Shown here: piece by piece, positions 20,085 to 38,080 of the stretch | Layout: the number at the start of each line of letters is the position of its first letter | Numbering within the stretch: position 1 is the first letter of the stretch | Assembly: GCA_049303795.1 (NCBI GenBank) | Contig: JBAQNM010000015.1 | Span: 36,590 to 100,589 of the forward strand | Length of the DNA stretch: 64,000 nt | Origin: Candidatus Moraniibacteriota bacterium | GTDB lineage: Bacteria > Patescibacteriota > Minisyncoccia > Moranbacterales > UBA2206 | Direction: 5' to 3' | Position numbers and translations under genes: made by a program | The notes under the pieces: generated by a model | What the model was told of the DNA's origin: nothing | Database searches by the model: none | Seen by the model: only the letters and a program-made list of their open reading frames with translations

Positions 20085-20130
20085 TCAATTGTATTTGTAT
20101 TTTGCCTTATTTTTGGACAAAAATCAACCT
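20085..20130 (+). repeat. direct repeat, copy a (...TGCCTTATTTTNNGACAAAAATCAA)
   Basis: Matches copies at 33765-33818 and 36372-36427. Confidence 0.55.
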
Positions 20131-22536: not shown

Positions 22537-22656
22537 TTGTGCGAAATATATGCGGTATAAGGTATTCCGATTTTATCAAGATATGCACTCTGATTATGGT
22601 CGGAGCTTCCTCAATATTCAACAAATTAGGCTTTTTAGGCCTTTTTATTTTTCACA

Positions 22657-22685
22657 ATTGACAAAATCCCAAGAACATACTAATA
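22657..22685 (+). promoter_or_regulatory. near-consensus sigma70 promoter plus a conserved ~110-nt leader (module P1)
   Basis: TTGACA, 17 nt, TAATAT. The downstream leader TTTTTATCCTAATTGGGGTAAGAATTGG...CATAAAGGAGA is shared with the leader at 35300-35410. Confidence 0.65.
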
Positions 22686-22803
22686 TCCATAGTCCGCTCT
22701 TTAACAAGTTTAATCATCCAATTTTTATCCTAATTGGGGTAAGAATTGGGTGATTAATAAAATAGGAACTAAAAAACAATCATACACATAAAGGAGAGGG
22801 TCC

Positions 22804-23418
22804 ATGAACAAGCGGAAAGAAAGCATTGCAGAATTTTTTAAAATATTTACTACTCCCCATATGGTATCATCGTTGATGGCAATAATCGTATTTGTCGTAG
22901 CCGTACGATACTTTACTCAGGCCTGGTGGAATATTGATTTCGATGATACCATTTCGGAAGTCGAGTACGTACCACCAACGAAGGTTCACTTCAAAATGAT
23001 CCGCGGAAGAGATATCAGAAAGGAAGAATTGACAGAAATTCTAAGTGAAAATCTTTTTTGGCAAATCGCCAAGAACGCCGATGTAGAAGTTTTAGCTCAA
23101 AACAAAGGTGCGGACATTCAAAACATCTTGCTTTATGTAAGCTTTGACAATGATAAAGATGTTGTTGTGCATAAATTGATGTTCATGCCAAAGCCAGCAG
23201 TGGATTATTGTGACAACCTCCTGTTGACTTATGGCGCGTTTGCGTCACAAATCAAGGACGACAGAATCGTCTTTTACTGCAAATGGCACAAGGCACCAAC
23301 TATCATTGCTTCCACATTGACATTCATAGCCAGCTTAGCAGTGGCGGCTATTGCATGGGGGTTATCGATGCTCATTATGAGCCTTGTGCTACTGATGCTA
23401 TTTAACTCCCCCCGATAA
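22804..23418 (+). CDS. hypothetical membrane protein with N- and C-terminal TM; paralog of 35411-36049
   Basis: Shares architecture with its paralog: N-terminal TM, a conserved FWQIAKNADVEV / FWEIARDSDVEV block and a C-terminal TM helix. Same leader and RBS. Confidence 0.6.
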   Translation: MNKRKESIAEFFKIFTTPHMVSSLMAIIVFVVAVRYFTQAWWNIDFDDTISEVEYVPPTKVHFKMIRGRDIRKEELTEILSENLFWQIAKNADVEVLAQNKGADIQNILLYVSFDNDKDVVVHKLMFMPKPAVDYCDNLLLTYGAFASQIKDDRIVFYCKWHKAPTIIASTLTFIASLAVAAIAWGLSMLIMSLVLLMLFNSPR

Positions 23419-23518
23419 TTTCCTCCCGGTTTTTTTAAAAATTAAAAAAACGGTTGACCAATTAAGGCAAACCGCTTTTGTTTTAATATAAACTACACTT
23501 ATTATACAAATAGTTCTT

Positions 23519-24559
23519 TTATTTTAATGCGTAACGCAATTGAGATGATAAAGAATTCTTGCCGCCTCGATCAGAGATATTATAGGAACCAAAAGGCAAA
23601 TAGTTGCAACCAACCGCATCCACATCTGTATTGAAACATCCTATTTTAGTCTCAAAAAACGGCATTTTTTCAATAATTTCAATCATCTGCTCCGCTGTTT
23701 CTTTTTGAGTAAGCGGTCTATTGATGCCGCCTTCTTCCTCCTGTCGCATCTTTTGTGCATAAAGACTTTGAATGCCCGCATTTACCCCCATAAAAGTAAG
23801 AAATCGTGGTCGGATAACCCCTAGTAATTCAGCGGTGCGTTCAACGTGTTCAATATAATGTTTAATCCCACCAAGTCCCGGCATTATCATTACTGAAGTG
23901 TTCATATTAACCGTCCTTAAAATAGTTGCTGCATCTATCATATTCCTACTTGTACATCCTTTTTGTACATAACGAAGCACATCATCAGAGCCAGATTCAA
24001 CGCCCCAGTAGATCAAATCCAAAACAGCAGGAAAATATTTACTACGCACATACCATTTTTTTCCTTTACGCCATCTTCCGCCGTGGCAAAGATTAGCCAT
24101 ACCATCTTTTCCATGCTTCAAAATATCTGTAGTACGACCATACAAAGCAACACGATTCGGTGTTCTGCCTATGTTTTTGGAAAATTCAATTTGTGTATAC
24201 AAAAGAAGCTGATGAAGCATTTCTCCGTCGATATTTAAGGAATTGCCCCCTCCTACAAAAATGCGCTTAAGTTTCCTTGAAAAATATTTTTCGCCAATAA
24301 GTCTCCAGATATTGTCGACATGTTGTTTATATTCTTCTGGAGTTTTTATGGAATATTTTATTCCACAATATCCTCCGCAGAAAGTACATTTTCCCCAGCT
24401 ACATCCCTTGGTCAACTCAAATTGTATTACATGATCTAGTCTTTCTGATGGAGGTGAAAACATATTTGGCGAACTGTATAAACCTGGAATTCTATATAGA
24501 TCTTCTAAGCTTTTCATCCTCTCACTCCTTTCTACATTGATATTTTTAAAAAAAAACAA
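23519..24559 (-). CDS. radical SAM-superfamily protein with a non-canonical CX4CX2C motif
   Basis: KGCSWGKCTFCGG cluster motif, FVGGGNSL (GGE-like SAM motif) and GVESGSDDVLRYVQKG (the GxES(G)S...L...KG radical-SAM motif). Confidence 0.55.
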   Translation of the reverse strand: MFFFKNINVERSERMKSLEDLYRIPGLYSSPNMFSPPSERLDHVIQFELTKGCSWGKCTFCGGYCGIKYSIKTPEEYKQHVDNIWRLIGEKYFSRKLKRIFVGGGNSLNIDGEMLHQLLLYTQIEFSKNIGRTPNRVALYGRTTDILKHGKDGMANLCHGGRWRKGKKWYVRSKYFPAVLDLIYWGVESGSDDVLRYVQKGCTSRNMIDAATILRTVNMNTSVMIMPGLGGIKHYIEHVERTAELLGVIRPRFLTFMGVNAGIQSLYAQKMRQEEEGGINRPLTQKETAEQMIEIIEKMPFFETKIGCFNTDVDAVGCNYLPFGSYNISDRGGKNSLSSQLRYALK

Positions 24560-24692
24560 ATTCCTGTTTTAAAGAACATTTATATTACCCCCAAATCATA
24601 TACATTTTTTCATTTTTGTCAAGGAATACGTCTTAAATTCTAATCTAATTATCACAATCTTAGAAGAAAAGCCAGACAAACTCAAAATTATC

Positions 24693-25313
24693 CTAGAATC
24701 CCAAGATTTGTCTGACAAAAATAATGTGAATCCTATTAGGAACGAATTCTTTTTCAACTAGCAATATTTTTCCAATCACACTACCAGCATAGTCACTATT
24801 TTTCATGCGCTGATCTTCCAACGGGAAAACATATTCTCCGAGCCTAGTAAAGGCATCCTCCAAATTTTCCGTGATCTTATGTGCTCCAACCACCCAGATA
24901 ACATGCGGACTCGTAAATGCGTATGATGGCAATTGACTGCCTGTCGCACTAGCGTCCAAAACAACACCATCCTTTGTTATGGCATGGATACTGCCTAAAA
25001 AATAATCCGCCAGAACGCTTTTTCTACGCAATTCGTTTTGTTTGGTCAAATCCTCTTCCGCCAGCACTTCTTCTTTTAGATTTTTCCAAGAATGTTTACC
25101 AGATTTTAAAAATTCAGAAAAACCAATCTGATCTAGCGTCGTTGAACTACCAGTCATCAAACTAACACCGGCGGGAATGAGTTCTTTTAATCTATCCAAC
25201 GCCTGCGTTTGATCGTCCACAATTTCGGCTGAAATATTCCTATTTTTTAGGTTTTCAATCACTTTTTTAATAACGGCTTTTGTTGGGATTTTTTCCCATT
25301 TAGAATTACTCAT
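24693..25313 (-). CDS. LUD-domain (LutC/YkgG-like) protein
   Basis: LMTGSSTTLDQIG...HVIWVVGAHKI pattern typical of DUF162/LUD. Confidence 0.6.
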   Translation of the reverse strand: MSNSKWEKIPTKAVIKKVIENLKNRNISAEIVDDQTQALDRLKELIPAGVSLMTGSSTTLDQIGFSEFLKSGKHSWKNLKEEVLAEEDLTKQNELRRKSVLADYFLGSIHAITKDGVVLDASATGSQLPSYAFTSPHVIWVVGAHKITENLEDAFTRLGEYVFPLEDQRMKNSDYAGSVIGKILLVEKEFVPNRIHIIFVRQILGF

Positions 25314-25545
25314 ATAATTTTTAAATTAAACATTTATACTCTGTTATTTTAATACGATATTTCCAGTATAATTATTACACTATAGCTTTTGATTTCAAAG
25401 AAATTGTTTGCTACACTTTATTTACTAAAAATGATACTATAATCTCGTCTCTTAAATTGAGAAGTTTATCAAGAAGTGGTTTTTTATTTTAGAAGTATAG
25501 TTATAATATAAGACTTAATCCAAAAAAAATTAAATATTTTGAAAT

Positions 25546-26289
25546 ATGAAAGAAAACTATTTGACCGCTGAAAATTATTATGAAACTTATTCCGGTTGGG
25601 ATCTCAGATTGATGTATGAAAGAATAAAAAAAATGCAAATTCCAGATAATAATCGGGAGCAACTTAGCACAAAAGAAAAAGCAAATATATTAATTTTGGG
25701 ATCGGCCACGCCAGACAATCTTTCTCGTATTGCCCAAATCGATTCTTATCTTCGACCAGGTAAAGTTGAACAAGATGTGGCTATAATTATTGATCAAAAT
25801 ATGCATCCTCTTGCGAAACATAAAGAGGATATTCTTTGTCTTGAAGGCAAGGATGGATGGAGTAATACACCAAAATCTACACCAGAATTCCCTCTTCCAA
25901 AATTTGAATTGTCCCAAGCTGATATCAGAGAACTCCCTTTTAAAAATAATGAAGTTGATATAATCATATCTGACTACACTCTCAATTACTTAGAAACTAT
26001 TGAGGACATCAATAGAACATTTGAAGAAATTTCTCGCGTACTCTCAACAAATGGACTTGTTTTTATCTCCCTTAGAGGCAATGAAAAATATCCTTACCAA
26101 AAAGAAAACCCCATCAAATTGCAAAATGATGTACAGCAAAAAAATCAAGGAGGTGTAATGGTTAATTATTTCCCCTTACACACCTACTTCGAGATTGCTA
26201 AAAATCATAACTTAAATATCGTCAATACTGATAATGCTGGAACGGATATTTGCGCTCTTATAGTCAAAAAGCAAGAATCACCCAATTGA
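25546..26289 (+). CDS. putative class I SAM-dependent methyltransferase
   Basis: Motif-II/III-like segments: IRELPFKNNEVDIIISDYTLNYL then LSTNGLVFISL. Motif I is atypical. Confidence 0.5.
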   Translation: MKENYLTAENYYETYSGWDLRLMYERIKKMQIPDNNREQLSTKEKANILILGSATPDNLSRIAQIDSYLRPGKVEQDVAIIIDQNMHPLAKHKEDILCLEGKDGWSNTPKSTPEFPLPKFELSQADIRELPFKNNEVDIIISDYTLNYLETIEDINRTFEEISRVLSTNGLVFISLRGNEKYPYQKENPIKLQNDVQQKNQGGVMVNYFPLHTYFEIAKNHNLNIVNTDNAGTDICALIVKKQESPN

Positions 26290-26373
26290 TTGATTCTTTT
26301 TTTGCATAAAAAAATGACTGCCTAGTAATCTAGAACAGTCATTAAATAGAAACACGTAAGTTACAACCTCACA

Positions 26374-27261
26374 TCAACTGCACGGGTCGTCATCTCGATC
26401 ATGATGATCATTATACTTCCTACTGGCTTTATCATATCCTTCTTCATAACCATCCGTGTAGCCTTTGCTATGCCCAGCCGCTTTGCCTTTTCCATAGCCA
26501 GCCTTATAGCCTTTCGCATGACCATCAATATAGCCCGCTGTTAGCCCTTGATCATAGGTTCCTTTACCGTAACTACCGATAATAGTCCACTCCAGACCGA
26601 TTTCGGAAGCTTTTTTTACAAGATCAAGAAAATTATCGACCTTGTCCGGCTCATTTTTGAGCATATGGACAATGCAGAGTATCAGTTCGTGATAGAGAGT
26701 CGCCTCACTAAGATTGAGCAGATTGATTGCCTCCAGAATATTCAAGCTTCTGCCCGCACTCCATGTGTGCAAGCTAATTGCATCCATTATGAATTGGCTC
26801 AACTCTCCTCCTGCCAAATCCCAGATCGCAAAACATCTCCGAATGTATTCTTTGCCTACAGCAGCATCATAAAGTTTTTTTATTTCGATGGCGTACGCCT
26901 CGACCTTCACTTTGTCTTTTTCAGCAGAAAGGGTTCTGAGTTTTTTCGGTCCCAGAGTTGAATAGATATAGGCCCCGTTCCGGATGAGTGTTACCGCGAA
27001 GTCATCATCCATAGCGTTATCGATAACAATCTGGAAAAAATCAGACAGGTCTCCGGATTTTAGTTGTTCGATTATGACCATTCCCTGGCGAATAATTTCA
27101 AGACACGCCTTCGATGGTTGACTTAATGGGACCGCGTTCCTGATGCTATAAGCACCATTTAGGAATATGTCCACAACAGTCACTCCCATAGATTCAAGGA
27201 TTTCACTCAAATCGTCTCCACCGCCGAGTGATTGCAATCTTCTTTTTTGTTCATCGTTCAT
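26374..27261 (-). CDS. hypothetical protein with a C-terminal Gly/Tyr repeat (GYxxG..)
   Basis: 295-aa ORF with GC distinctly above the backbone. C-terminal GYIDGHAKGYKAGYGKGKAAGHSKGYTDGYEEGYDK repeats. Confidence 0.5.
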   Translation of the reverse strand: MNDEQKRRLQSLGGGDDLSEILESMGVTVVDIFLNGAYSIRNAVPLSQPSKACLEIIRQGMVIIEQLKSGDLSDFFQIVIDNAMDDDFAVTLIRNGAYIYSTLGPKKLRTLSAEKDKVKVEAYAIEIKKLYDAAVGKEYIRRCFAIWDLAGGELSQFIMDAISLHTWSAGRSLNILEAINLLNLSEATLYHELILCIVHMLKNEPDKVDNFLDLVKKASEIGLEWTIIGSYGKGTYDQGLTAGYIDGHAKGYKAGYGKGKAAGHSKGYTDGYEEGYDKASRKYNDHHDRDDDPCS

Positions 27262-27543
27262 CTGTCATCCTCCCTTTCGATTGTTGTAAGTTAATAAACG
27301 ACCATTGTTAATGTAAATTTAAAAGAACTTTCAATCTTACACCAAAAAATCAACGCTGTCAATGCACGATTGACAAAAATCAATTTTAATAGTATTATCG
27401 AAAATCGATCATTAAAAATTAAATACTCATTTGAGTAGCAATAAGAATGTAAATCTGTATATTATTATTTTATTACTACTCATATAACCCAGCAAAAAAA
27501 CTATAATCATTTATCCACATCAAATCAAAATAAGGAGTTTCCG

Positions 27544-27843
27544 ATGAAAAATTTATTATTGAAGGCAGAAAATGGGAAGTCCGCCAGCATTACCGTCAAG
27601 AAAGGAGAAAATATAACTTTCGGCGGTACTAATGGTAAAAAATTCAGCTTCAGAAATATCGACGGAGAAAATTATAATATCTCCAATGCTTCAAAAAGAG
27701 TCTTTAAGCAAAGGATTAATGCAAGAAACAACTATCTGATGGATGATTATGGTACTGCCAGAATTGTGTGTGATTGGCGAATAAAAAAAGCTGATGAGCA
27801 CGCAATGATCGTTTATACAAACGAAGGTTACCATCATCTTTAA
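27544..27843 (+). CDS. hypothetical small protein
   Basis: 99-aa ORF with RBS AAGGAG, a TATAAT at 27503-27508 upstream and a terminator downstream. Confidence 0.45.
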   Translation: MKNLLLKAENGKSASITVKKGENITFGGTNGKKFSFRNIDGENYNISNASKRVFKQRINARNNYLMDDYGTARIVCDWRIKKADEHAMIVYTNEGYHHL

Positions 27844-27891
27844 AAACACTCACACAATCAAAAATAGAAATTCCATCACTCAAAAAAAATC

Positions 27892-27930
27892 GGCAGGTTT
27901 GCATAGCAAACCTGCCTTTATTTTTTTATT
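27892..27930 (+). terminator. rho-independent terminator
   Basis: GGCAGGTTTGC-ATA-GCAAACCTGCC followed by TTTATTTTTTT. Confidence 0.7.
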
Positions 27931-28059
27931 AAAAATTTATCTTTACAATAAAAAAGCAGGAACTTTCATTTAGAAATGGCCCGCTCTTCACGACATATAA
28001 TTTATTAGATTAGAGATTAAGGCGATATACTCTCGTAAATAATTAATATTTTGTCAATT

Positions 28060-28836
28060 TTATTTCCTTAATTCTTTTGACCCTACCCATAAGCCTTCGA
28101 ACATAGCTGACATAGTTTCATTTATTTCATTCGATTGAATAAGCACGGCAGAAATATTTTTAATAGACGTTATGAAAGCCACTTTATCATCAAAGATAAT
28201 TATGACTGACTGAAATCTACCTTGCATTATTTTAGGCAAATAGCGCGGATTACGTTCGCGCATATCCTCTGGAGTCAAACTTTTCGCATCTGAAACATAT
28301 TCCCAAAGCGAGCGCGATTGAATGTTATTTTCTTTTCGTGTTTTTAAATAATAACGAGCATAACTAGAATCAAATTCACTAAAAAAATTCTTCTTCGGTG
28401 CAATAATATTCCACTGACGACTCCTGCAGTAAAGCGCTTCCTCGACCACCAATTTTATCCCTTCAATACCCTCAAAATGAGAAACCTTGAAAGTATCTTC
28501 TTTTTGCTTAACGCGATCAAGAAGTAGCGGAATAACACTTTCAATTTCCTGTTTTCTTTCTTGAAGCAATCTTATCTCACGATCAAAAAATTTTTTAATA
28601 TTTTCTGGCGAAGTCATAGAGAATATTAATTTGGCCCCCGTCCCACTTTCCCGTTTTGAAGCTAATCCCTTTTGAATCAAAGTATTCAGAGCATGATAAA
28701 TAGTCGTCCTATTAATACGCGTTGTTTTTTCCAATTCCTTAACACCAATTGAATCATAAGAGAGACCTCTTAAATAAATTTCTATTTCCGTATCAGTTAA
28801 ACCCATCTTTTGAAGAATAGTTTTCACTTGAGACAT
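28060..28836 (-). CDS. TrmB-family transcriptional regulator
   Basis: N-terminal wHTH LGLTDTEIEIYLRGLSYDSIGVKELEKTTRINRTTIYHALNTLIQKGLASKR typical of TrmB. Start at internal Met (the track ORF begins at 28890). Confidence 0.65.
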   Translation of the reverse strand: MSQVKTILQKMGLTDTEIEIYLRGLSYDSIGVKELEKTTRINRTTIYHALNTLIQKGLASKRESGTGAKLIFSMTSPENIKKFFDREIRLLQERKQEIESVIPLLLDRVKQKEDTFKVSHFEGIEGIKLVVEEALYCRSRQWNIIAPKKNFFSEFDSSYARYYLKTRKENNIQSRSLWEYVSDAKSLTPEDMRERNPRYLPKIMQGRFQSVIIIFDDKVAFITSIKNISAVLIQSNEINETMSAMFEGLWVGSKELRK

Positions 28837-29061
28837 AAACTTGTAATAATAATTATATCCGCATTTTACCCCATATTCTTTTTTTGTCAATTTATATTTG
28901 AACTATATAATGCTTTTTTTAAGGCATATCACAAGCTTGTCATTCATTCATTATAAACACATATTAACACTTTTTTTATTTCCATTAATATAAAGTTATG
29001 ATGAGTTCTTTAAAAATAAACAAATTTGATTTTTAATCTTCAAGAGAAAGGAAACAAAATT

Positions 29062-29733
29062 ATGAAATCTACTACAATGAAAGTACTCGTTACTGCTGGC
29101 AGCACACTTATGTCGATCGATCAGGTACGTGCGATCACTAATATTTTTAAAGGAAAAACAGGTACTGCGATCGCGACATTCATTGCGCACACAAAGGCAG
29201 ATGTCACATTGGTTACATCAAATCCAGCTATTGCGTCAAAGATCGATACGATGAGTGTCATTCCCTATAAGACATATGCAGATCTTGCTGAGATCATGGA
29301 GCAGCAAATCGTGCATGGTGCATATGATATCATCATCCACTCAGCTGCAGTAAGTGATTTTTTTGTGAGTAATGTATGTGTGATGGATACAGATGGTCAA
29401 CTAGTAAAAATTGACGCGACAAAAAAAGTATCATCAGCATATCCAAAACTCTATTTGGAACTCTCTCCCACTGAAAAGCTTATCAATAAGATTCGGTCTG
29501 ATTGGGGTTATTCTGGGAAGCTGATCAAATTTAAACTGGAGGTTGAAAAAACGTATGATGAATTGATCTCGATCGCTATAGCAAGTGTTCGAGCGTCTGG
29601 AGCTGATCTCATTGTTGCAAATTGCCTTGAATGGTGTGATCGATCAGCTGTGATCATATATGCAGACGGTGCATATATAGAAGTCGATCGTCACAAGTTA
29701 CCAGAGGAATTATGGAGGAGGATAAACAGATGA
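29062..29733 (+). CDS. coaB: phosphopantothenate-cysteine ligase (stand-alone CoaB)
   Basis: KVLVTAGSTLMSIDQVRAITNIFKGKTG matches the CoaB/Dfp C-terminal signature (TAGxTxExIDxVRxIxNxSxGxxG). Stop TGA overlaps the coaC ATG (ATGA). Confidence 0.78.
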   Translation: MKSTTMKVLVTAGSTLMSIDQVRAITNIFKGKTGTAIATFIAHTKADVTLVTSNPAIASKIDTMSVIPYKTYADLAEIMEQQIVHGAYDIIIHSAAVSDFFVSNVCVMDTDGQLVKIDATKKVSSAYPKLYLELSPTEKLINKIRSDWGYSGKLIKFKLEVEKTYDELISIAIASVRASGADLIVANCLEWCDRSAVIIYADGAYIEVDRHKLPEELWRRINR

Positions 29734-30281
29734 AAAAAATTCTATTAGGCGTAACGGGTAGTGTTGCCGCAAAATTGACGCCAAAACTGGTTAATCTTCT
29801 TGAGGCATCAGATTATGAAGTGCGAGTGGTTGCTACTGAGCAGTCTCTTTACTTTTGGGACTCGAAAGATGTAAACATCCCAATCTTTCGTGAGACAGAT
29901 GAATGGTCAGGTTTTGCCTATATAAAAGATCAAATCATCCCACATATTGCATTGTGTGATTGGGCTGATGTATTTCTTATTGCACCGCTCACTGCTAACA
30001 CACTCGCTAAAATGGCATGTGGCATATGTGACAATCTTATCACATCTGTGGTGAGAGCATGGCCGTTAGCAAAACCATTGATCGTAGCACCATCTATGAA
30101 TACACAAATGTGGAAAAACCCACTGACTAAAAAACATCTTACCAATCTCTCTGAATATTATCAGGCAATTATTATCCCGCCCATTGAAAAAAAATTGGCT
30201 TGTGGCGAAGAAGGTCTCGGGGCAATGGCTGAACTTTCAGATATCCTAAATATTTTAGCAGATATTATTGACAAAAAATAA
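29730..30281 (+). CDS. coaC: phosphopantothenoylcysteine decarboxylase / HFCD-family flavoprotein (stand-alone CoaC)
   Basis: ILLGVTGSVAA (FMN-binding), IAPLTANTLAKMACGICDNL, APSMNTQMW and LACGEEGLGAMAE motifs. Confidence 0.82.
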   Translation: MKKILLGVTGSVAAKLTPKLVNLLEASDYEVRVVATEQSLYFWDSKDVNIPIFRETDEWSGFAYIKDQIIPHIALCDWADVFLIAPLTANTLAKMACGICDNLITSVVRAWPLAKPLIVAPSMNTQMWKNPLTKKHLTNLSEYYQAIIIPPIEKKLACGEEGLGAMAELSDILNILADIIDKK

Positions 30282-30304
30282 TGATATCTCATCAAACCTC
30301 GCTG

Positions 30305-30345
30305 TTTTCAAAAAAACAGCGAGGTTTCTTTAATTAAAAAGCAAT
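30305..30345 (+). terminator. rho-independent terminator after coaC
   Basis: AAACCTCGCTGTTTTT-CAAAAAAACAGCGAGGTTT followed by CTTT. Confidence 0.7.
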
Positions 30346-30482
30346 TTTTAAATTATTATGAATACACAAAAACTGATTAATTAAATCAGTTAAGCGCATA
30401 CTTATTATAAATAAAAATCAAACTTACAAGTAAAATTACGGCTTTTTCTTGTTTTCACTTTTTCTTTTCTTAAGTTCTTTTT

Positions 30483-30526
30483 TTAAAAATAAAAAATTCC
30501 CATCCAGACATTTGTCCAGATGGGAA
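30483..30526 (-). terminator. terminator of the radical SAM gene
   Basis: TTCCCATC...GATGGGAA hairpin with a T-run on the minus strand (A-run 30485-30496 on plus). Confidence 0.5.
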
Positions 30527-30544
30527 TTTATGCAACAAGCAATC

Positions 30545-31972
30545 TTATAGCCAAAGCTCGTTTATAGATACGATTTGATCGGGAATAGCTCGCTCCAGAA
30601 TCCTCTCCTTCATCAGGTCAACAAATTCTGAAATGAGTCTATAAACATAGGCGTAGCAATCCATTCGCGGATAGTTGTTTTTCTGCACAACGCAACCACC
30701 GCCACACAAAGGACCAATATGGCAAATTCTGCAATCCTCCTTTTCCATAAAAGTCTTGCTCTTAAGTTTTGCTTCGTTTTCAGAAAAACCACTGCTTGCC
30801 TCGCCAATGCAGAAAGTATTATTATTGATAGTTCTTGGGCAATGAAAAATCCTTCCATCAGTTGAGAATACATAATGGAAACCTTTTTGAGGTTCACAAA
30901 AACCAAACTTGGGCCCCCAATACGTTTTATATCTGCCCAACCAATCGAAGCTATGGGTGAGGTGTGCAAGATATTTAAAACTTTCAAACTTCAGCTTGCC
31001 TCGAAGTTCAGGATGATTTTCCCAGAGCTCAATGATTGATTTCACCATTATCGCTTCGGTTATTTCATCCTTCCGAGAGTCCAGATTGGCATAATCATGA
31101 GAGCCTTCGATTCGCCACTGAAAATTAGATAAACTAAGCCAGCCTTTATCTTTAATGAACGAGGATAATTCTTCCAAGCAGTCCGCATTGCCTGCACCAA
31201 GAATAGTTTGCACCTTTACCTGAAAATTTCTTTTGAGCAGACTATCCACGGCCGAAACAACTTCGGTGAAAGATCCTTTGCCTCCCCTGAAAGGTCTTCG
31301 TAAATTGTGCGCATGAGAAGGTCCATCAATTGTTATCCGAAAATCGGATATAACCTCTCTGAACCTCTCGAAAACCTTCATAAAATTTAACACTCTAGAC
31401 CCATTGGTTACAATAACGCATTTCCAATTATTCCGCTCGGCCGTCTCCAGTATCCAATTAAGAATATTTCTGCTGGAAACCAGCAGTGGCTCTCCCCCGA
31501 AAATAATAAGATTCATCTTGTCCGCTGGTATATTCTTTTCTTCCTGAATCTTTTTTATCCGACTGCTTACATCCTCCAATACCCTCCTGCTGATTTGCGA
31601 ATTTTTTAGGATTTTTTTCTCATAGCAGATAGGGCAAGCGAAATTACAATTGAGCGTTGTAAGAACGTAGAACCAGTAGGGCACATGCTTGCCGTGCTCT
31701 TGACTAGTTTTAATTAGCCTCTCCAGTTGCAATGAATCATCATTCTGAATCAAATAGCCTCTTGAATTAAGAATATCCCCTTCTTTACTGTCAATTTTCC
31801 CCTCAAGAATTCTTTTGGGAACGATATCAATCGCTCCTGTGAGTGTGTTAATCAGCAACAAAAATAAATCACTGAGCTCAAATACAATTGTCCTTGCATT
31901 AAATATGGCCACGATAGTCTCCTTTATATAGGTCTTTATTATTTGGTATTTACTATTTTTAATATAAGTCAA
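30545..31972 (-). CDS. radical SAM / SPASM-domain protein with an N-terminal extension
   Basis: CX3CX2C (LNCNFACPICYEKK). C-terminal Cys-rich SPASM-like segment (CPRT...CRICHIGPLCGGGCVVQ...C). Extra ~100 aa at the N-terminus. Confidence 0.8.
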   Translation of the reverse strand: MTYIKNSKYQIIKTYIKETIVAIFNARTIVFELSDLFLLLINTLTGAIDIVPKRILEGKIDSKEGDILNSRGYLIQNDDSLQLERLIKTSQEHGKHVPYWFYVLTTLNCNFACPICYEKKILKNSQISRRVLEDVSSRIKKIQEEKNIPADKMNLIIFGGEPLLVSSRNILNWILETAERNNWKCVIVTNGSRVLNFMKVFERFREVISDFRITIDGPSHAHNLRRPFRGGKGSFTEVVSAVDSLLKRNFQVKVQTILGAGNADCLEELSSFIKDKGWLSLSNFQWRIEGSHDYANLDSRKDEITEAIMVKSIIELWENHPELRGKLKFESFKYLAHLTHSFDWLGRYKTYWGPKFGFCEPQKGFHYVFSTDGRIFHCPRTINNNTFCIGEASSGFSENEAKLKSKTFMEKEDCRICHIGPLCGGGCVVQKNNYPRMDCYAYVYRLISEFVDLMKERILERAIPDQIVSINELWL

Positions 31973-32048
31973 ATACTACTTGTGAAAGAACCAATGTTAA
32001 AGGATATAAGTAAAAATGAGGATAGTCAAGTCTCGATCTTCCGTTCAA

Positions 32049-32234
32049 TTATTCTTTCAGCTTCTCTAAATATTCCATGCCTTGCTTATAATTCTTAAAT
32101 TTATCCGCTTTTGCTCCAAAAAAAGATCTTGAATTTTTAAAAGGAAATGTCGAAAGTAAATTGAATGTAAAATTTGACCAATAAGGCACTTTGATTCGCT
32201 TACCTGGCGGTAGACAGAAATCCTTCCTCCTCAA
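32049..32234 (-). pseudogene. remnant of a HAD-hydrolase paralog
   Basis: The C-terminal ~22 aa (FGAKADKFKNYKQGMEYLEKLKE) align with the C-terminus of the HAD at 33845-34438 (LGMKTIEFKNYKQCVEDLEML), and the DNA similarity extends past the stop. The remainder of the ORF is not HAD-like. Confidence 0.45.
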
Positions 32235-32286
32235 CAGACGAGAAAAGTTTTAATATAGCCTTTTCATTGTGTTTAATTCACAGATA

Positions 32287-32315
32287 TTGACATGATGGCT
32301 ATTTTATGCTATCAT
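32287..32315 (+). promoter_or_regulatory. near-consensus sigma70 promoter (module P2)
   Basis: TTGACA, 17 nt, TATCAT. The -10/+1 region TATGCTATCATTGTTAGTTCATT is almost identical to the promoter at 35264. Confidence 0.65.
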
Positions 32316-32410
32316 TGTTAGTTCATTAGGGTGGTCCTAGTGAAAGTTCATTCCACTATCGATCTCAAAAAGATTTGGGACGAAAAGAAGAAAGGAAAGG
32401 AGAATACAAC

Positions 32411-32833
32411 ATGTCGTCAATTCATGGATGGAAAAATGGCGTAGCAGAGGGAAGGGCTGTTGGAAGTGAACTTACTCTTGCCAGGAAAGAAATTCTTAAT
32501 GCAGGAAATTTTGATTATCTCACTTCATACACTTATTTTCACACGTGCCCTCCTCGCATAAGAGGAGAATACCGCATAGGTAGCAGCGTGGGAACACTGG
32601 ACTACATCAATAAAGCAATGACCAAGTCCGTTGAATACAAGCTGATCATTGAATTTACAGACCTTGATGAAGCGTTAGTGTTGTATAATTTGATTCGAGG
32701 CGGAAAAATCTGGCCAGTCATCAACTATGAAGACCCTCAAGTGCCATCGCCCTGCCGTCACCTGAAAGATATTTTCCGTGAAGGCCTGGGAATTATCCGT
32801 CGCGAAATTGCAAAAAAACTGCACTTCGCATAA
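32411..32833 (+). CDS. hypothetical protein
   Basis: RBS AAAGGAGAA precedes ATG 32411. 140 aa. GC-richer than the backbone. Confidence 0.5.
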   Translation: MSSIHGWKNGVAEGRAVGSELTLARKEILNAGNFDYLTSYTYFHTCPPRIRGEYRIGSSVGTLDYINKAMTKSVEYKLIIEFTDLDEALVLYNLIRGGKIWPVINYEDPQVPSPCRHLKDIFREGLGIIRREIAKKLHFA

Positions 32834-32878
32834 TCACTCAATACAGCAAATGCACTAATTCAAGGAAAGGATTAAGTC

Positions 32879-33115
32879 ATGTATATAGACGATTCTCCCG
32901 TTCCAAATTTCCCACCGTCTTCGTCCGGACAAGTTATCGTTATCGATAAAACAGACAAGGACGCGGATTCTGTCATCGAGCTGGCCCGCGACGAAGGAGC
33001 TACCTCCATCGATGCTGACGGAGATGAAACCTTCTGGGTAGTTTTCTCCGATGAACCCCGTCGCGTGTGGGACTTCACTGAAGAAGCCCTGAGAGGGGAA
33101 ATTAAAAAGATGTAG
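32879..33115 (+). CDS. hypothetical small acidic protein
   Basis: RBS AGGAAAGGA. 78 aa, rich in D/E. Followed by a strong terminator. Confidence 0.45.
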   Translation: MYIDDSPVPNFPPSSSGQVIVIDKTDKDADSVIELARDEGATSIDADGDETFWVVFSDEPRRVWDFTEEALRGEIKKM

Positions 33116-33150
33116 CTCGCGTAACACCCGAGCATAACACATTCAAAACA

Positions 33151-33183
33151 GGGTCACTAGATATTTCTAGTGACCCTTTTTCT
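33151..33183 (+). terminator. rho-independent terminator
   Basis: GGGTCACTAGA-TATTT-TCTAGTGACCC followed by TTTTTCT. Confidence 0.75.
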
Positions 33184-33285
33184 ATGATAAATTCAACGAA
33201 GATATTTTAATTTAATTCCATAACCTAAATACTGGCTTAAATTAGCCATTTCTTGCTTATTTTACTCAAATCGCTATCACGGCAC

Positions 33286-33313
33286 TTGACAAGTTCCATA
33301 GATAGTGTATACT
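33286..33313 (+). promoter_or_regulatory. near-consensus sigma70 promoter (module P3) driving a noncoding unit
   Basis: TTGACA, 16 nt, TATACT, preceded by the AATTAGCCATTTCTTGCTT box that also precedes promoter P4. Confidence 0.55.
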
Positions 33314-33770
33314 GTAGTGTACGATTGGTTGATTTACAATTTTTGTCACTCGAAAGATTTTCGAAAAATAGCCCTGGCATGAACAGTTGTGCTCGCAAAC
33401 AGGATGAAATTCGAAATTCAATCGAAACTTGATTTATCCGATGCAAGAGGTGCATTAGGCAATCAAGGATGAAAGTTGCGAATGCAACTGATCGTAGGTA
33501 GTGGTTCTTTTATTTTTTATTTTTTAAGAAAAACGTTGCGTGCATGTAAGCGCAACGCGAGAGTGCAAGTATTTTTTTATTTTTGTTCAAAAGTAAGACC
33601 CTTGCGAGCACTAGCCGTCTGAATTGAATCTGATTTAAGCACAATGTGGATTCGGTCAGAAGTTCGTTTAGATGGCGAAAAATGGAGAAGGATCCACAAA
33701 AAGTCGAGACCAGACTATAATGGTCGAGTACCCAATCTATGGGGGATATGCGCTGCATATCCCCTTTTTT
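33314..33770 (+). ncRNA. candidate ~450-nt noncoding transcript bounded by a promoter and a terminator
   Basis: No credible ORF on the plus strand; the minus-strand ORFs look spurious. GC is above the backbone. Internal hairpins include GTTGCGAATGCAAC and CGTTGCGTGCATGTAAGCGCAACG. It ends in the terminator GGGGATATG-CGCTG-CATATCCCC-TTTTTT (33742-33770). Confidence 0.35.
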
Positions 33771-33818
33771 ATTTTCCAATTTCTAATCTCCCCTGCCTTA
33801 TTTTCAGACAAAAATCAA
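33765..33818 (+). repeat. direct repeat, copy b
   Basis: TTTTTTATTTTCCAATTTCTAATCTCCCCTGCCTTATTTTCAGACAAAAATCAAGC, about 85% identical to copy c. Confidence 0.6.
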
Positions 33819-33844
33819 GCTAGCTTTGCTATATAATATCAAAA

Positions 33845-34438
33845 TCAATTGCCTAAAAGCATTTCTAAATCTTCCACACATTGTTTATAATTCTTAAACT
33901 CGATCGTCTTCATTCCAAGAATTTTAGCAGGTTCTAGATTTTTTATTCTATCTTCAATATAAATACACTCCCCTGCTTCTAAATTCAATCTTTCAAGGAC
34001 TTTTTTATATATTTCTATATCTGGTTTTGCAAAACCCACATCATAAGACGTCACTATCACATCAAAAACTTCTCTAAATTTCTTCTCTTCCAAAATAGGC
34101 TCGAGCCAAGATTCTATCTGATTGGACAGTATCGCTAATTTATATTTACCCTGTAGATTATTTTTAACATAAGCATAAAGCTCATCGCGAAAGCCAGTGT
34201 ATTCAACAAAATATTTTTTGAATTTAAATGCATCCATTCCCACAAAAGCTCCAAGTTTTTCCCAGAAAATATTAGAATCTATTTTTCCAACTCTAGCTTC
34301 TAACCAAATAGACAGCCCTATCTCATTTGCTTTTTGCGAATCGACATTCAACTTCACAGCATTGTTCAACCAAAATTCCTGAATATCATCATTTATGGAG
34401 AAAACGCCGCCGAAGTCAAATATTATTGCTTTATACAT
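33845..34438 (-). CDS. HAD-superfamily hydrolase (canonical motifs)
   Basis: Motif I IIFDFGGV, motif II LSNQ, and YIEDRIKNLEP for motif IV. Confidence 0.75.
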   Translation of the reverse strand: MYKAIIFDFGGVFSINDDIQEFWLNNAVKLNVDSQKANEIGLSIWLEARVGKIDSNIFWEKLGAFVGMDAFKFKKYFVEYTGFRDELYAYVKNNLQGKYKLAILSNQIESWLEPILEEKKFREVFDVIVTSYDVGFAKPDIEIYKKVLERLNLEAGECIYIEDRIKNLEPAKILGMKTIEFKNYKQCVEDLEMLLGN

Positions 34439-34591
34439 ATATTTGCTAATTTTAATTATACCTTAATCATAGCACCCAATTAAATCATTTTCAATTATTC
34501 GCTTCTATACTAAAATAGGACGTTGAAATATTTTGTGATAGAATTTATTCAAACTGCTTTTAGTGTTTTGTCCTGAAAAATAATAAACCTT

Positions 34592-35170
34592 ATGCATTAT
34601 AAAAATAAAATTTTTGCAGAAAAAGAAGTTCGCGGTGAACATTTTTCTGATTGCCAATTTTCCGCTTGTTCCTTTCCTGAAATTAACCTAAAATTCACCA
34701 CTTTTAACAATTGCACATTCAATGCCTGCGATCTCTCATCCATCAACTGCGAAAGCACTGGCTTTTCCAATTGCTCTTTTCCTGAAAGTAAATTAAGCAA
34801 CCTAAACTTTCTGGCGGTCAAATTCACTGATTGCGATTTCTCTGGCGCTATCATGCAAAATTGCATCTTTGAAAAACGCCAAGGAATAAACAATTTGCCA
34901 GCGAAAAAATTCTCTCTCGCCGATTGTAAATTTGAAGAAACTGATTTATCAGGCAGTATCTTTTTTCTTTCTGATTTAACTGGAGTAAGCTTTAGAAACT
35001 CCAAACTAGAAAAGACTGGCTTTGAAAAATGCATTATCAGAAAAGTAGATTTTACCGGCGCAACAATCAATGGCGCACATTTCACAGATTGCACGATCGA
35101 AAAAACTATTTTGGATTTTCAAGGCTTTATTCATTTTGGCAATTCGCATGGGTTTGAGTTGAATGGTTAA
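34592..35170 (+). CDS. pentapeptide-repeat protein
   Basis: Tandem A(D/N)LxX-type pentapeptides throughout, for example FSDCQFSACSFPEINLKFTTFNNCTFNACDLSSINCE. Confidence 0.8.
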   Translation: MHYKNKIFAEKEVRGEHFSDCQFSACSFPEINLKFTTFNNCTFNACDLSSINCESTGFSNCSFPESKLSNLNFLAVKFTDCDFSGAIMQNCIFEKRQGINNLPAKKFSLADCKFEETDLSGSIFFLSDLTGVSFRNSKLEKTGFEKCIIRKVDFTGATINGAHFTDCTIEKTILDFQGFIHFGNSHGFELNG

Positions 35171-35263
35171 AATCATATAGACAGACAACCACTAACTTCT
35201 TTCTATGATCTCAAAGTTTTAAAAAATCGCCTCAATTAGCCATTTTTTGCTTTTCCTGATCGA

Positions 35264-35292
35264 TTGACAAAGAGCCTTAAATATGCTATCAT
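35264..35292 (+). promoter_or_regulatory. near-consensus sigma70 promoter plus conserved leader (module P4)
   Basis: TTGACA, 17 nt, TATCAT. The leader carries the palindrome CCTAATTAGG and shares about 100 nt with the P1 leader. Confidence 0.65.
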
Positions 35293-35410
35293 TTCAAGTT
35301 AGTTCATTGACAATATTGATCGTCCTATTTTTATCCTAATTAGGGGTAAAACTTGGACGATTAAGTATACTAAAAAAACCACACAAATCACTCATAAAGG
35401 AGACTCCGAA

Positions 35411-36049
35411 ATGAACAAAAAGGAAAAGCTCGTTGGATTTTTGAAAAAAATGGCAACCCCCGACAGCCTATCTGGAATAATTGCAGGCTTTATCTTTATT
35501 TTCATTATGATAGTTACAATCAACAGCTACCGGTCAATAAAGATCGACCCATGGAAAACAACAGAGGAGGTGCTTACTGCGCCAGTTCCAGCTACGCTGG
35601 TTAAAATCGGGAAAACCACCCCCAAAATATTGACGGTAATAGTCAATGAGCAAATTTTCTGGGAAATTGCCAGAGACTCGGATGTTGAAGTTTCAATTGA
35701 TTACAAGAAAGGGTTTGCAGAAGTGACTTATTTTAAACGTTTCGGCAAAGGCGAAATCGCGGTCATGCACAATTCCCTGTTCACGCCTAAAAAGCCCATG
35801 GATTCATTTCAGTCTTTTTTCAAATATGAACCATCGGCATTCCGCTTCGAAAATAATAAAATAATCTTTGATTATAGGTCAAGCCCAAGCCCCACTACTG
35901 CATATGGGGTAGTCATCCTTTCCGTGGTTAATCTAATGATTGCATTTTCATGTTGGTTTTTTTTATTTATTACCTTTAAGTTAGTACTTGATGAAAAACG
36001 GAAAGCGCTTTTCAAACGCAAAAAACAATTACCCATTAAGGAGGAATAA
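35411..36049 (+). CDS. hypothetical membrane protein, paralog of 22804-23418
   Basis: Same leader and RBS (CATAAAGGAGA), same start MNK(K/R)KE, and the conserved FWEIARDSDVEV block. Confidence 0.6.
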   Translation: MNKKEKLVGFLKKMATPDSLSGIIAGFIFIFIMIVTINSYRSIKIDPWKTTEEVLTAPVPATLVKIGKTTPKILTVIVNEQIFWEIARDSDVEVSIDYKKGFAEVTYFKRFGKGEIAVMHNSLFTPKKPMDSFQSFFKYEPSAFRFENNKIIFDYRSSPSPTTAYGVVILSVVNLMIAFSCWFFLFITFKLVLDEKRKALFKRKKQLPIKEE

Positions 36050-36050
36050 A

Positions 36051-36302
36051 ATGAAAAAGCACCTGTTAAGATTGGTTCTGTCCGGAGTGGAAGGCGTCAA
36101 AATCGTATGGTCTGACGTTGTTCCTGAGGCTGAAAAAGCCTACATCTTTGATGGCATTTCTGACCAAGTGCATTTCATCGGAGAAGTCAGTGTGTGCGAT
36201 AAGGATACCTATCGAGTCATTGAAGGAAATCCTTCCGCATTCAAAGAGGCATCCATTGCCTTAAAAAATCCGACAACCATCCAAGTCAAACCCATTGTCT
36301 AA
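36051..36302 (+). CDS. hypothetical small protein, translationally coupled
   Basis: RBS AAGGAGG lies inside the end of the upstream gene. ATG 36051 sits 1 nt after the upstream TAA. Confidence 0.45.
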   Translation: MKKHLLRLVLSGVEGVKIVWSDVVPEAEKAYIFDGISDQVHFIGEVSVCDKDTYRVIEGNPSAFKEASIALKNPTTIQVKPIV

Positions 36303-36347
36303 ATCCAGCAAAAAAATGCTAGAATTTAGGCGACTCCACCGTACACG

Positions 36348-36382
36348 GACCCTCTTTTCTCAAGAGGGTCCTTTTTTATTTT
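36348..36382 (+). terminator. rho-independent terminator
   Basis: GGACCCTCTT-TTCTCA-AGAGGGTCC followed by TTTTTTATTTT. Confidence 0.75.
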
Positions 36383-36427
36383 CCAATTTATTAATTTCCC
36401 CCTGCCTGATTTTTAGACAAAAATCAA
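36372..36427 (+). repeat. direct repeat, copy c
   Basis: TTTTTTATTTTCCAATTTATTAATTTCCCCCTGCCTGATTTTTAGACAAAAATCAAAT. Confidence 0.6.
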
Positions 36428-36448
36428 ATATTACTTTAGTATTAAATT

Positions 36449-37840: not shown

Positions 37841-38080
37841 AAAATCAAGACCCCACTGCTAGTTTCCCCATGAAAACTTATTTTGCTTGAAATCACCAGA
37901 AAAATGCTACTGATTCTTTTGGCGATATAGCCACTTGCTTTTTTCTTTATTCTGTATTAACCTGAATTCAGGCAGTTTTAAACAAAAAACTGCCAAAAAT
38001 ACAACAGAACCTTAACAAAAAGCATTGTGCTTTTTTTTGTTTTAGCCAACCAATACCCACATAATATCAGGAGGCGTTTT

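Follow-up and report, generated by a model that had tools for sequence, protein, structure and literature searches.

A stem-loop conserved in the predicted 5' leaders of paralogous orphan membrane-protein genes of a Candidatus Moraniibacteriota bacterium

A 64-kb window (64,000 nucleotides of one Candidatus Moraniibacteriota contig) was used for the analysis, and the four units P1 to P4 described here all lie on its forward strand. P1 and P4 carry genes for membrane proteins. Gene A (22804-23418, 204 amino acids) belongs to an orphan family and encodes a transmembrane helix, a beta-rich domain and a second transmembrane helix; gene B (35411-36049, 212 amino acids) is its paralogue. Both are preceded by the Shine-Dalgarno sequence AAAGGAGA, at 22790-22797 and 35396-35403, respectively. 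Comparison of the two proteins revealed 26% identity (E 1e-13), in agreement with the paralogy proposed by the first-pass annotation, and a set of 1.84 billion representatives holds no more than six clusters of their family. A gene for 83 amino acids of no known family (36051-36302) starts one base past the stop codon of gene B, and the P4 operon is predicted to end at an intrinsic terminator (36347-36371). The P2 unit has a leader (32322-32383) with two hairpins of its own (32322-32344 and 32359-32383), both kept with compensatory changes in an orthologous unit of another organism (L125), and its cargo (32411-33115) encodes proteins of 140 and 78 amino acids that have no Pfam family and are unrelated to A and B. 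The P3 unit (33320-33765) consists of about 450 nt without a convincing open reading frame or a called gene and closes with an intrinsic terminator at 33741-33765 followed by a T-run; with a z of -6.9 and no Rfam match, it is a candidate non-coding RNA.

Promoter-like sites were present at all four positions where sigma-70 promoters had been annotated, the coordinates of P1 having been given one base too low. The sites are TTGACA-17-TAATAT at P1 (22658-22686; TTGACA at 22658-22663 and TAATAT at 22681-22686), TTGACA-17-TATCAT at both P2 (32287-32315) and P4 (35264-35292), and TTGACA-16-TATACT at P3 (33286-33313). Each matches the sigma-70 consensus at 10-11 of 12 positions, and the TG of an extended -10 element occurs in P2 and P4 and is missing from P1 and P3. 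The four do not stand alone: the window contains 13 TTGACA-N16-18-TANNNT sites where 2.9 +/- 1.7 would be expected, and 8 of the 13 lie between 22.6 and 35.3 kb. Four further sites (24622, 27362, 27370 and 28890) each lie just 5' of a correct-strand open reading frame in the ORF list and the gene calls of the assembled genome. The pattern of this promoter class gave 103 metagenome matches with diverse downstream sequence. Its consensus consists of TTGACAAA, an A/T-rich spacer and an extended -10 TGnTAT.AT, and a small terminator-like hairpin with a T-run often lies directly 5' of such promoters. Overall, our analysis suggests that the many short transcription units here have stereotyped, near-consensus sigma-70-type promoters, and that P1-P4 are ordinary housekeeping promoters of this type with predicted start sites. 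The spacer, extended -10 and start-site element of sigma-70 promoters are broadly conserved across bacteria, including one CPR species, and the spacer and start region of the present sites follow this widespread consensus (PMC12641261). P1-P4 are like housekeeping sigma-70/sigma-A extended -10 promoters in the TTGACA, the spacer of 16-17 nt and the TA...T hexamer; compared with the housekeeping promoters of many bacteria they are nearer to consensus and more uniform, and otherwise nothing about them is unusual. Where promoters are this stereotyped, identities of 12 to 20 nt between the promoters of unrelated genes are to be expected and are no signal of recombination.

Alignment of the window with itself revealed the region around P1 and P4 as its best non-self alignment (35234-35472 against 22624-22868; 65.6% of 250 nt, E 1e-17), and local alignment of the pair gave a z-score of 26.5. 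The shared leader described by the first-pass annotation was thereby borne out, and its core 20-mer occurs at these two sites only (0.01 expected). Alignability is not restricted to the leader and spans the whole upstream region. The terminator-like hairpin upstream of P1 (AGGCTT/AGGCCT, with T-run; 22628-22652) corresponds to the AATTAGCC box that precedes P3 and P4. These alignments identify P1 with gene A and P4 with gene B as ancient paralogous units, in which the upstream hairpin and T-run, the predicted promoter, the 5' leader and the open reading frame are all homologous.

A different origin had been proposed for P4, namely that promoter, leader and box are separable modules which recombined, P4 combining a P2-type core promoter with a P1-type leader in a wider shuffling of cassettes. 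The shared block on which the proposal drew was found: the 12-mer TATGCTATCATT and the 11-mer GTTAGTTCATT have exact matches at P2 and P4 only. The 12-mer, however, is contained in the class consensus, and the P2-P4 score over -60..+60 (26.0) falls within the range of 81 unrelated class promoters compared with P4 (mean 20.0, sd 5.2, top 32.5). When the promoters were placed in register by their -35 elements, P2 and P4 were no more alike than random class members, and their copies of the 11-mer stand 4 nt out of register. The longest match of P4 to any of the 81 background promoters is 9 nt, which the 11-mer exceeds, and on that basis a small specific relation between P2 and P4 is conceivable. 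The history of the P2 unit also argues against recombination. Its orthologue in the other organism is 74.9% identical in nucleotides from terminator to stop codon, promoter and leader included, so that the P2 promoter and leader have descended with their own gene family. The upstream region of this orthologue shows no significant similarity to P4 (z 2.0), nor is the P2-type leader significantly similar to the P1/P4 type (z 1.7), while P1 and P4 align throughout. The likeness between P2 and P4 is accordingly read here as the promoter consensus that they have in common, and a chimeric P4 is not upheld.

P3 and P4 have both flanks in common around unrelated interiors (33 nt on the 5' side and 91 nt on the 3' side). 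The box AATTAGCCATTTYTTGCTT, which had been noticed before both promoters, was confirmed with exact matches at 33240 and 35234 only, and the similarity around it extends to 33 nt at 82%. In the 5' flank of P3 (33226-33258, containing AATTAGCCATTTCTTGCTT) it forms part of a terminator-like hairpin TGGCT-TAAATT-AGCCA with a T-run, of which the 5' flank of P4 (35220-35252, containing AATTAGCCATTTTTTGCTT) holds a degenerate copy; the box is the 3' arm and T-run of a small terminator-like hairpin. The 3' flank of the P3 unit (33763-33848) is repeated after the P4 operon at 36370-36460, with 79% identity, where it runs into the start of an MFS gene. Both carry a 25-mer (33794-33818 and 36403-36427). 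A third copy of the 25-mer adjoins the LOOT RNA. The shared flanks are the only signal that fits a shuffling of cassettes; they are equally accounted for by local duplication, which would be the simplest explanation. The P2 unit stands in the other organism as a discrete block in a wholly different gene neighbourhood, directly after what we read as a tRNA gene, and this too would suit recombining modules. On the other side, Pfam scans of 20 open reading frames between 20 and 37.6 kb detected no recombinase, integrase or transposase, and neither the 25-mer nor the leader hairpin had copies in the other loci and collections searched. Taken with the comparisons of P2 and P4, recombination of separable modules is improbable.

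The shared P3/P4 flanks, the 25-mer copy beside the LOOT RNA and the P2 block in the other organism are also the grounds for a related reading, in which the units are self-contained, insulated accessory-gene cassettes of CPR bacteria that relocate or swap cargo from one genomic site to another. Such a cassette may consist of terminator-like hairpin, promoter, leader, cargo, terminator and a conserved 3' flank with the 25-mer. This is a long shot in our estimation; were it true, one cassette family would carry the leader hairpin as its regulatory signature. The units are like integron cassettes in being short single-gene units bounded by imperfect palindromes, and P3 and P4 have common boundaries with unrelated cargo. 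Unlike integron cassettes, each unit has its own promoter, and the palindrome lies 5' of the open reading frame inside the leader. An integron attC site was considered for the hairpin and rejected: no integrase is present among the 20 scanned open reading frames, and the hairpin flank is GTTTAAT, not GTTRRRY.

Within the P1/P4 leader, analysis of the fold revealed a stem-loop of 48-50 nt. In P1 (22710-22757) it forms 22 contiguous base pairs closed by the loop AAUU and scores 72.3 bits; in P4 (35316-35364) it forms a 10-bp basal stem, a 3x3 internal loop and a 9-bp apical stem closed by the loop AAUUA, and scores 72.7 bits. Predicted folding energies are -27.3 kcal/mol (z -8.3) for the P1 hairpin and -22.3 kcal/mol (z -6.2) for that of P4, and no other 120-nt window within 19.8-37.6 kb is as structured as the P1 leader. 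The palindrome CCTAATTAGG, which the first-pass annotation had placed in both leaders, is the tip of this hairpin; it is intact in P4 and one A shorter in P1. No U-tract or terminator follows the hairpin.

The same stem-loop was found at the same position upstream of a third family member in another organism (P0003, L015/L016). In all three units it begins about 17 nt past the predicted start site, and its 3' end lies 43-46 nt from the ATG. The copy at L016 forms a helix of 10 + 9 bp with an internal loop, as in P4. Comparison of the three units revealed 71-85% identity in the hairpin, against 42-47% in coding nucleotides and 19-29% in amino acids, and the leader was the sole similarity that blastn found between L016 and the window at the DNA level. 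The stems keep their sequence while the loops vary (AAUU, AAUUA and UGACCU). Across 22 pairs, 89% of cells are paired, with a single compensatory change from A-U to G-C and six one-sided changes compatible with wobble pairing. In the covariation check suggested by the first-pass annotation, 177 of 500 shuffles reached the observed score, so that with three hairpins, drawn from two organisms, covariation does not attain statistical significance. The sequences themselves, the paralogy of the genes and the fixed position of the hairpin are direct observations, as is its conservation across organisms.

The element is confined to part of the family. The other three family clusters (L017, L018-20 and L021) lack it in their upstream regions, so that it is not universal in the family. 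Covariance models of Rfam 15 gave only chance-level matches (E up to 10, below the gathering threshold) to the leaders and the P3 unit, and over the whole window detected only tRNA and LOOT, both away from the leaders. The hairpin occurs twice in 64 kb, at the same position before each paralogue; about 657 kb of other loci and the JGI metagenomes contained no copies, and the GTDB representatives gave three chance matches only. A dispersed palindromic repeat of the REP or MITE kind was rejected, with two copies in 64 kb, both linked to paralogues, and negative collections. Eleven contigs of the same population are 99.995-100% identical to the window, so that no variation within the population could be used.

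These results bear on the possibility that the likeness of the leaders has no function and reflects gene conversion between the copies or a palindromic repeat that hitch-hikes. Bacterial intergenic DNA commonly contains small palindromic repeats, and conversion is possible between P1 and P4, which are separated by 12.6 kb of a single genome. The element, however, occupies the same position before a homologue in another organism of different GC content (42% for L016, against 35.6%), as the sole similarity at the DNA level, and its only two copies in 64 kb both precede paralogues. A functionless likeness is very unlikely.

Conservation of the stem sequence would also fit recognition of DNA. A palindromic operator just downstream of the promoter, bound by a dimeric transcription factor, could repress both paralogues; conserved stems around a variable loop resemble a palindrome with a free spacer, the inner half-sites of L016 (TTATCC/GGATAA) are a perfect palindrome, and the block also includes a gene for a TrmB-family regulator (28060-28890). 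Against this, our own reading of the alignment gives an inner half-site spacing of N6 in P1 and L016 and N7 in P4, a change that a dimer would tolerate poorly. A simple operator would be expected to be shorter and nearer to the promoter than an element of about 50 bp that starts about 17 nt past the predicted start. Furthermore, the symmetry of the half-sites depends on counting G-U pairs. The sense strand of the hairpin scores 68-73 bits and the antisense strand 14-48 bits (42-48 against 72-73 bits for the copies in the window, 13.8 against 67.9 bits for L016), because G-U pairs turn into C-A on the opposite strand. With this observed sense-strand pairing bias, an operator is unlikely, though it deserves the most weight among the alternatives. 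A riboswitch that senses a ligand and controls the membrane proteins would likewise account for a strongly conserved 5' UTR element outside known families, and the internal loop of P4 and L016 could form a pocket. The invariant columns, however, lie in the helices; apical and internal loops vary, and P1 is fully paired. There is no expression platform and no U-tract, and alternative pairing with the Shine-Dalgarno is not conserved: the 5' end of the P1 fold pairs with it and that of P4 does not. We consider a riboswitch quite improbable.

Overall, our analysis suggests that the stem-loop is most likely a conserved cis-acting element acting as RNA and specific to the six-cluster family, and probably represents a new regulatory RNA element of small size; the first-pass annotation had suggested a cis-regulatory RNA or an operator for the long leader, and its presence before a distant homologue, with conservation above that of the protein, agrees with the suggestion. 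The reading as a whole, that ancient duplicates keep a cis-acting leader stem-loop on their mRNA and that the promoter likenesses are consensus, is given a probability of roughly 0.6. An ancestral unit with a small orphan membrane-protein gene would have duplicated to give P1 with gene A and P4 with gene B, and strong purifying selection would have kept the stem-loop of 48-50 nt in both 5' untranslated leaders. On the mRNA it may be recognised in cis by a protein or by a double-strand-specific RNase (RNase III, for example), and this recognition may determine how stable the message is or how well it is translated. Leader transcription, start sites and mode of action are here predicted from sequence. 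Regulatory RNA has hardly been explored in CPR/Patescibacteria, where recognisable regulators are few; a stem-loop conserved across organisms, far above the orphan envelope protein, gives this group a concrete candidate for post-transcriptional control that can be put to the test.

Stem-loops in 5' UTRs are known determinants of mRNA processing and stability, for example the target hairpins of RNase III and 5' stabiliser hairpins of the ompA type. The present element is like these in being a single long leader stem-loop without a terminator or an expression platform. By the size criterion for RNase III (about 20 bp or more, largely continuous), P1 with 22 contiguous pairs, or about two helical turns, has the size of a substrate, and in P4 and L016 an internal loop divides the helix into 10 + 9 pairs. 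Unlike a classical 5'-terminal stabiliser such as ompA, the stem-loop is preceded by about 17 nt of predicted transcript. It also differs from hairpins of both kinds in a stem sequence conserved far past the needs of pairing. Protein-binding leader motifs tied to a single gene family, for example the leaders of ribosomal-protein genes in Rfam, differ from the present element, which has no Rfam match, is known from three examples only and precedes a gene for a membrane protein, for which reason binding of the product to its own mRNA is unlikely. As in those leaders, a short structured leader has been inherited with a gene family and is conserved above the coding sequence.

Self-alignment of the window revealed that its top non-self alignment (65.6% of 250 nt, E 1e-17) joins two sigma-70-type promoter-like sites, P1 and P4, and extends from an upstream hairpin and T-run through the promoter and the leader, reaching 60 nt into the ORFs. 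The genes behind these sites, A and B, are paralogous, and the membrane proteins encoded are 26% identical (E 1e-13). Both the shared leader and the kinship of the genes had been proposed in the first-pass annotation, and both are borne out. A stem-loop was found in each leader: the P1 copy (22710-22757) has 22 contiguous pairs (-27.3 kcal/mol, z -8.3) and the P4 copy (35316-35364) has 10 + 9 pairs, separated by a 3x3 internal loop (-22.3 kcal/mol, z -6.2). When 19.8-37.6 kb was scanned on both strands in 120-nt windows, the P1 leader was the most structured window (z -8.45), and the leaders of P4 (z -4.56) and of P2 (z -5.96), the promoter-like site preceding genes for 140-aa and 78-aa proteins, ranked among terminators and the LOOT RNA.

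The same hairpin (TGATCGTCTTGTGTTTATCCTGACCTGGATAAGACTTGGGCGATTAAG) occurs upstream of P0003, a distant member of the protein family found at two loci (L015 and L016; GC 42%), where it is preceded by a promoter of the form TTGACA-17-TAATGT. In all three copies about 17 nt separate the predicted start site from the hairpin, and 43-46 nt lie between its end and the ATG. Sequence is conserved in the stems, with 89% of cells paired over 22 pairs and the internal-loop region paired in P1, and the apical loops are AAUU, AAUUA and UGACCU. Among the changes, one is double-sided (A-U to G-C) and six pairs changed on one side, via G-U; the covariation shuffle control (177/500 shuffles) is uninformative at a sample size of only three sequences. 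The hairpins are 71-85% identical, compared with 42-47% for codon-aligned coding DNA and 19-29% for the proteins, and the leader is the sole stretch of L016 alignable with the window by blastn. Retention of the stem-loop before P0003 upholds the suggestion that the leader is a cis-regulatory element, and on comparative grounds we consider the hairpin a conserved element, probably of this kind.

HMMER was run exhaustively over 1.84 billion cluster representatives, in which the protein family comprises only six clusters, and the DNA around the four clusters other than A and B was taken for comparison. Word-seeded searches for further members brought up nothing beyond the proteins of the window itself and two of the distant clusters. 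A covariance model, R1, built on the sense strand from the three hairpin copies, detected no additional copy, either in the window or across about 770 kb of loci; the hairpin was missing from the other three family loci and from 657 kb of unrelated loci. The exact hairpin core gave three chance matches only (Flavobacteriaceae, Methylobacillus) in 185,579 GTDB species genomes, and a degenerate pattern gave none in JGI metagenomes and none in IMG/VR. The AlphaFold model of the membrane protein (pLDDT 79.7) places a beta-rich domain between two TM helices; its only matches were weak ones, to alpha-crystallin-type chains (E 0.025, low TM-score), and no function is claimed from them.

All four promoter-like sites of the first-pass annotation are present: P2 (32287-32315), P3 (33286-33313) and P4 (35264-35292) lie as described, and P1 lies one base further right, at 22658-22686. 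The window contains 13 matches to the pattern TTGACA-N16-18-TANNNT where 2.9 are expected, eight of them between 22.6 and 35.3 kb, and the four such sites compared with the ORF list all precede a correctly oriented ORF. Near-consensus promoters are not peculiar to the P1-P4 units.

P4 had been read as a chimera of a P2-type core promoter and a P1-type leader. The exact 12-mer and 11-mer common to P2 and P4, and the 19-mer box common to P3 and P4, are each restricted to those sites in the window. The pattern TTGACA-N14-TGCTATCATT-N4-GTT, which fits P2, P4 and the promoter of the family loci L018-L020, retrieved 103 loci from JGI metagenomes (L022-L124; 81 non-redundant) with very diverse downstream sequences. 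The consensus of this promoter class, drawn from unconstrained positions, is TTGACAAAat..t.aAaaTATGCTATCATT....GTTa; it covers the P2/P4 12-mer, which is therefore mere class consensus. When aligned on the -35 hexamer, P2 and P4 have the same base at 6 of the 18 free core positions, against a class mean of 6.9 with P4. The gapped P4-P2 score over -60..+60 is 26.0, and P4 scores a mean of 20.0 (sd 5.2, top 32.5) with the class. The 11-mer (GTTAGTTCATT), at a 4-nt offset, is slightly above background, where no match is longer than 9 nt (AGTTAGTTC); six unrelated promoters also carry AGTTAGT(T).

An orthologue of the 140-aa protein behind P2, 66% identical to it, is encoded in another organism (locus L125). 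L125 9913-10501 and window 32243-32836 are 74.9% identical in nucleotides across terminator, promoter, leader and ORF, with no synteny beyond this unit, and both P2 leader hairpins are preserved in L125 with compensatory changes. The upstream region of the orthologue is not significantly similar to P4 (z 2.0). The P2 promoter is thus orthologous along with its gene and not significantly P4-like, and therefore belongs to the P2 gene. With the P2-P4 likeness inside the class range, the chimera interpretation of P4 is rejected; the promoter "modules" are generic. Two further relationships were considered. The second P2 leader hairpin has a UCG(A)UC/GGACGA stem in common with the P1/P4 hairpin and looked like a shortened homologue of it, yet similarity between the leaders is not significant (z 1.7, and z 0.4 for the L125 orthologue). 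That the P4 box and core promoter are ancestral for the gene family had looked likely since L018-L021 carry AGCCATTTTTTG...TTGACAAA...TGCTATCAT; the P4-L018 and P4-L021 scores of 31 and 32 come close to the upper limit of the class range (32.5) without passing it, and this reading is not adopted.

Many uncultivated organisms have the promoter TTGACAAA-N-AAAATATGCTATCATT-N4-GTTA in extremely uniform shape (103 exact matches to the pattern). According to a published survey (PMC12641261), spacer tracts, the extended -10 and an element at the start site are broadly conserved across bacteria. Several of the L022-L124 promoters drive long ORF-less stretches with GAAAGTCC-like motifs, unrecognised by Rfam at E 0.001. 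The presence of GAAAGTCC in several downstream sequences had suggested RNase P RNA genes, for which no Rfam match was obtained even at that threshold. At one of these loci, L059, a group I intron (1144-1380, minus strand; Rfam, 74 bits) lies among tRNA genes, in agreement with the published reports of tRNA introns in Patescibacteria.

The box preceding P3 and P4 corresponds to part of a terminator-like hairpin. In L125, L018 and L021 this region holds a small hairpin that is intact and has a T-run behind it (GGCT..AGCC or AGGCTT..AAGCCT); the P3 box is the 3' arm and T-run of TGGCT-TAAATT-AGCCA, and the 5' arm has decayed in P4 and P2. A WWWWAGCY box stands upstream of 20 of 82 class promoters, with about 5 expected; we do not take this as a true motif, as the control regions are probably mostly coding and the enrichment is likely due to the stems of terminators in tightly packed intergenic DNA. 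Units of a single gene that have a terminator-promoter junction of their own are seen repeatedly, in different organisms and unrelated gene surroundings (L125, and L019 and L020 upstream of the gene for the family protein P0005), and in L019 and L125 the box hairpin and T-run directly follow a tRNA gene.

P3 falls outside the promoter class, and its similarity to P4 (24.0) is higher than any of the 81 scores obtained against the class (mean 11.2, sd 2.4, top 19.5). The sequences 3' of the P3 terminator and 3' of the terminator of the P4 operon, which includes an 83-aa gene, share 79% identity across 91 nt and form the window's second-best self-alignment. The interiors of the two units are unrelated, and a decayed copy of gene B and the 83-aa gene was not recognised in P3 (DNA similarity z 0.2; no family HMM match). 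The simplest reading of these flanks is local duplication of the junctions, or of the whole unit with later cargo replacement. Cassette shuffling by recombination of modules, as first proposed, is unsupported: no recombinase was found in Pfam scans of the ORFs between 20 and 37.6 kb, and there were no further copies in the collections searched. In the MAG assembly GCA_049305975.1 a break between two contigs falls at 33763-33765, exactly where the 91-nt repeat begins.

From P3 to the terminator at 33741-33765 there are about 450 nt (33320-33765, plus strand) with no called gene and no convincing ORF, no Rfam match and no homologues found. The strongly negative folding z of -6.9 comes from long-range and not local pairing. 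This stretch is a candidate non-coding RNA; action in trans by pairing with the leaders was discounted (duplex energy -39.7, background mean -40.6). On the minus strand, at about 33565-33530, a clean terminator-like hairpin (CGTTGCGCTTACATGCACGCAACG) with a T-run (TTTTTCTT) lies within the unit, and therefore a convergent, antisense HAD transcript may overlap it.

A 25-mer, TGCCTKATTTTYRGACAAAAATCAA, occurs on the plus strand at 20103-20127, 33794-33818 and 36403-36427 with at most one mismatch (0 expected), and was absent from all other loci and from IMG/VR. Two copies sit in the 91-nt repeat following the P3 and P4 terminators; the third is 22 nt from the 5' end of an Rfam LOOT RNA (RF03000; 19958-20081, minus strand; 57.5 bits, gathering score 46.4), which is placed just downstream of the minus-strand gene 20193-20807 in this CPR genome. 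A description of the LOOT motif was not found in the main text of the 2017 survey. The 25-mer includes a -35-like hexamer, then AAAATCAA as at the promoter-like site 27370, and the 36403 copy (TAGACA-17-TAGTAT, ATG 7 nt on) may act as promoter for a leaderless mRNA of the MFS gene.

The window has a GC content of 35.6%, and that of the 20-39 kb stretch is not anomalous. Identity to the window is 99.995-100% for all 11 contigs of this species, which come from three NCBI MAGs and several Logan assemblies. The stretch contains many short units on both strands, with genes for radical SAM enzymes, a LUD-domain protein, a methyltransferase, a TrmB-like regulator, CoaB/CoaC-like proteins, a HAD hydrolase, a pentapeptide-repeat protein and an MFS transporter, besides several proteins without a Pfam family. 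The dnaA gene (38027-39367, plus strand) lies 2 kb downstream of the P4 operon; the tie to a replication origin that it suggested was dropped, as DnaA boxes in the window are neither enriched nor clustered and the GC skew shows no switch.

R1 scores on the sense strand were 68-73 bits, against 42-48 bits on the antisense strand in the window and 13.8 bits in L016. Antisense scores are lower because G-U pairs become C-A, and part of the asymmetry is a consequence of building the model on the sense strand. We infer, as the best explanation, that the hairpin would act on the mRNA as a recognition site for a double-strand-specific RNase or an RNA-binding protein, which fits the helix length, loop sizes that differ by one base and the dependence on G-U pairs. 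A DNA operator is possible, and conserved arms around a free centre match that pattern too; the varying spacing and the asymmetry of the strands agree with it less closely. With regard to known leader types, no U-tract follows the hairpin and no alternative Shine-Dalgarno pairing is common to the leaders, and these features, along with conserved stems and variable loops, argue against a riboswitch or attenuator. The hairpin matches no Rfam family; judged by Rfam and by the collections that were searched, the leader element is new, and it has a very narrow distribution.
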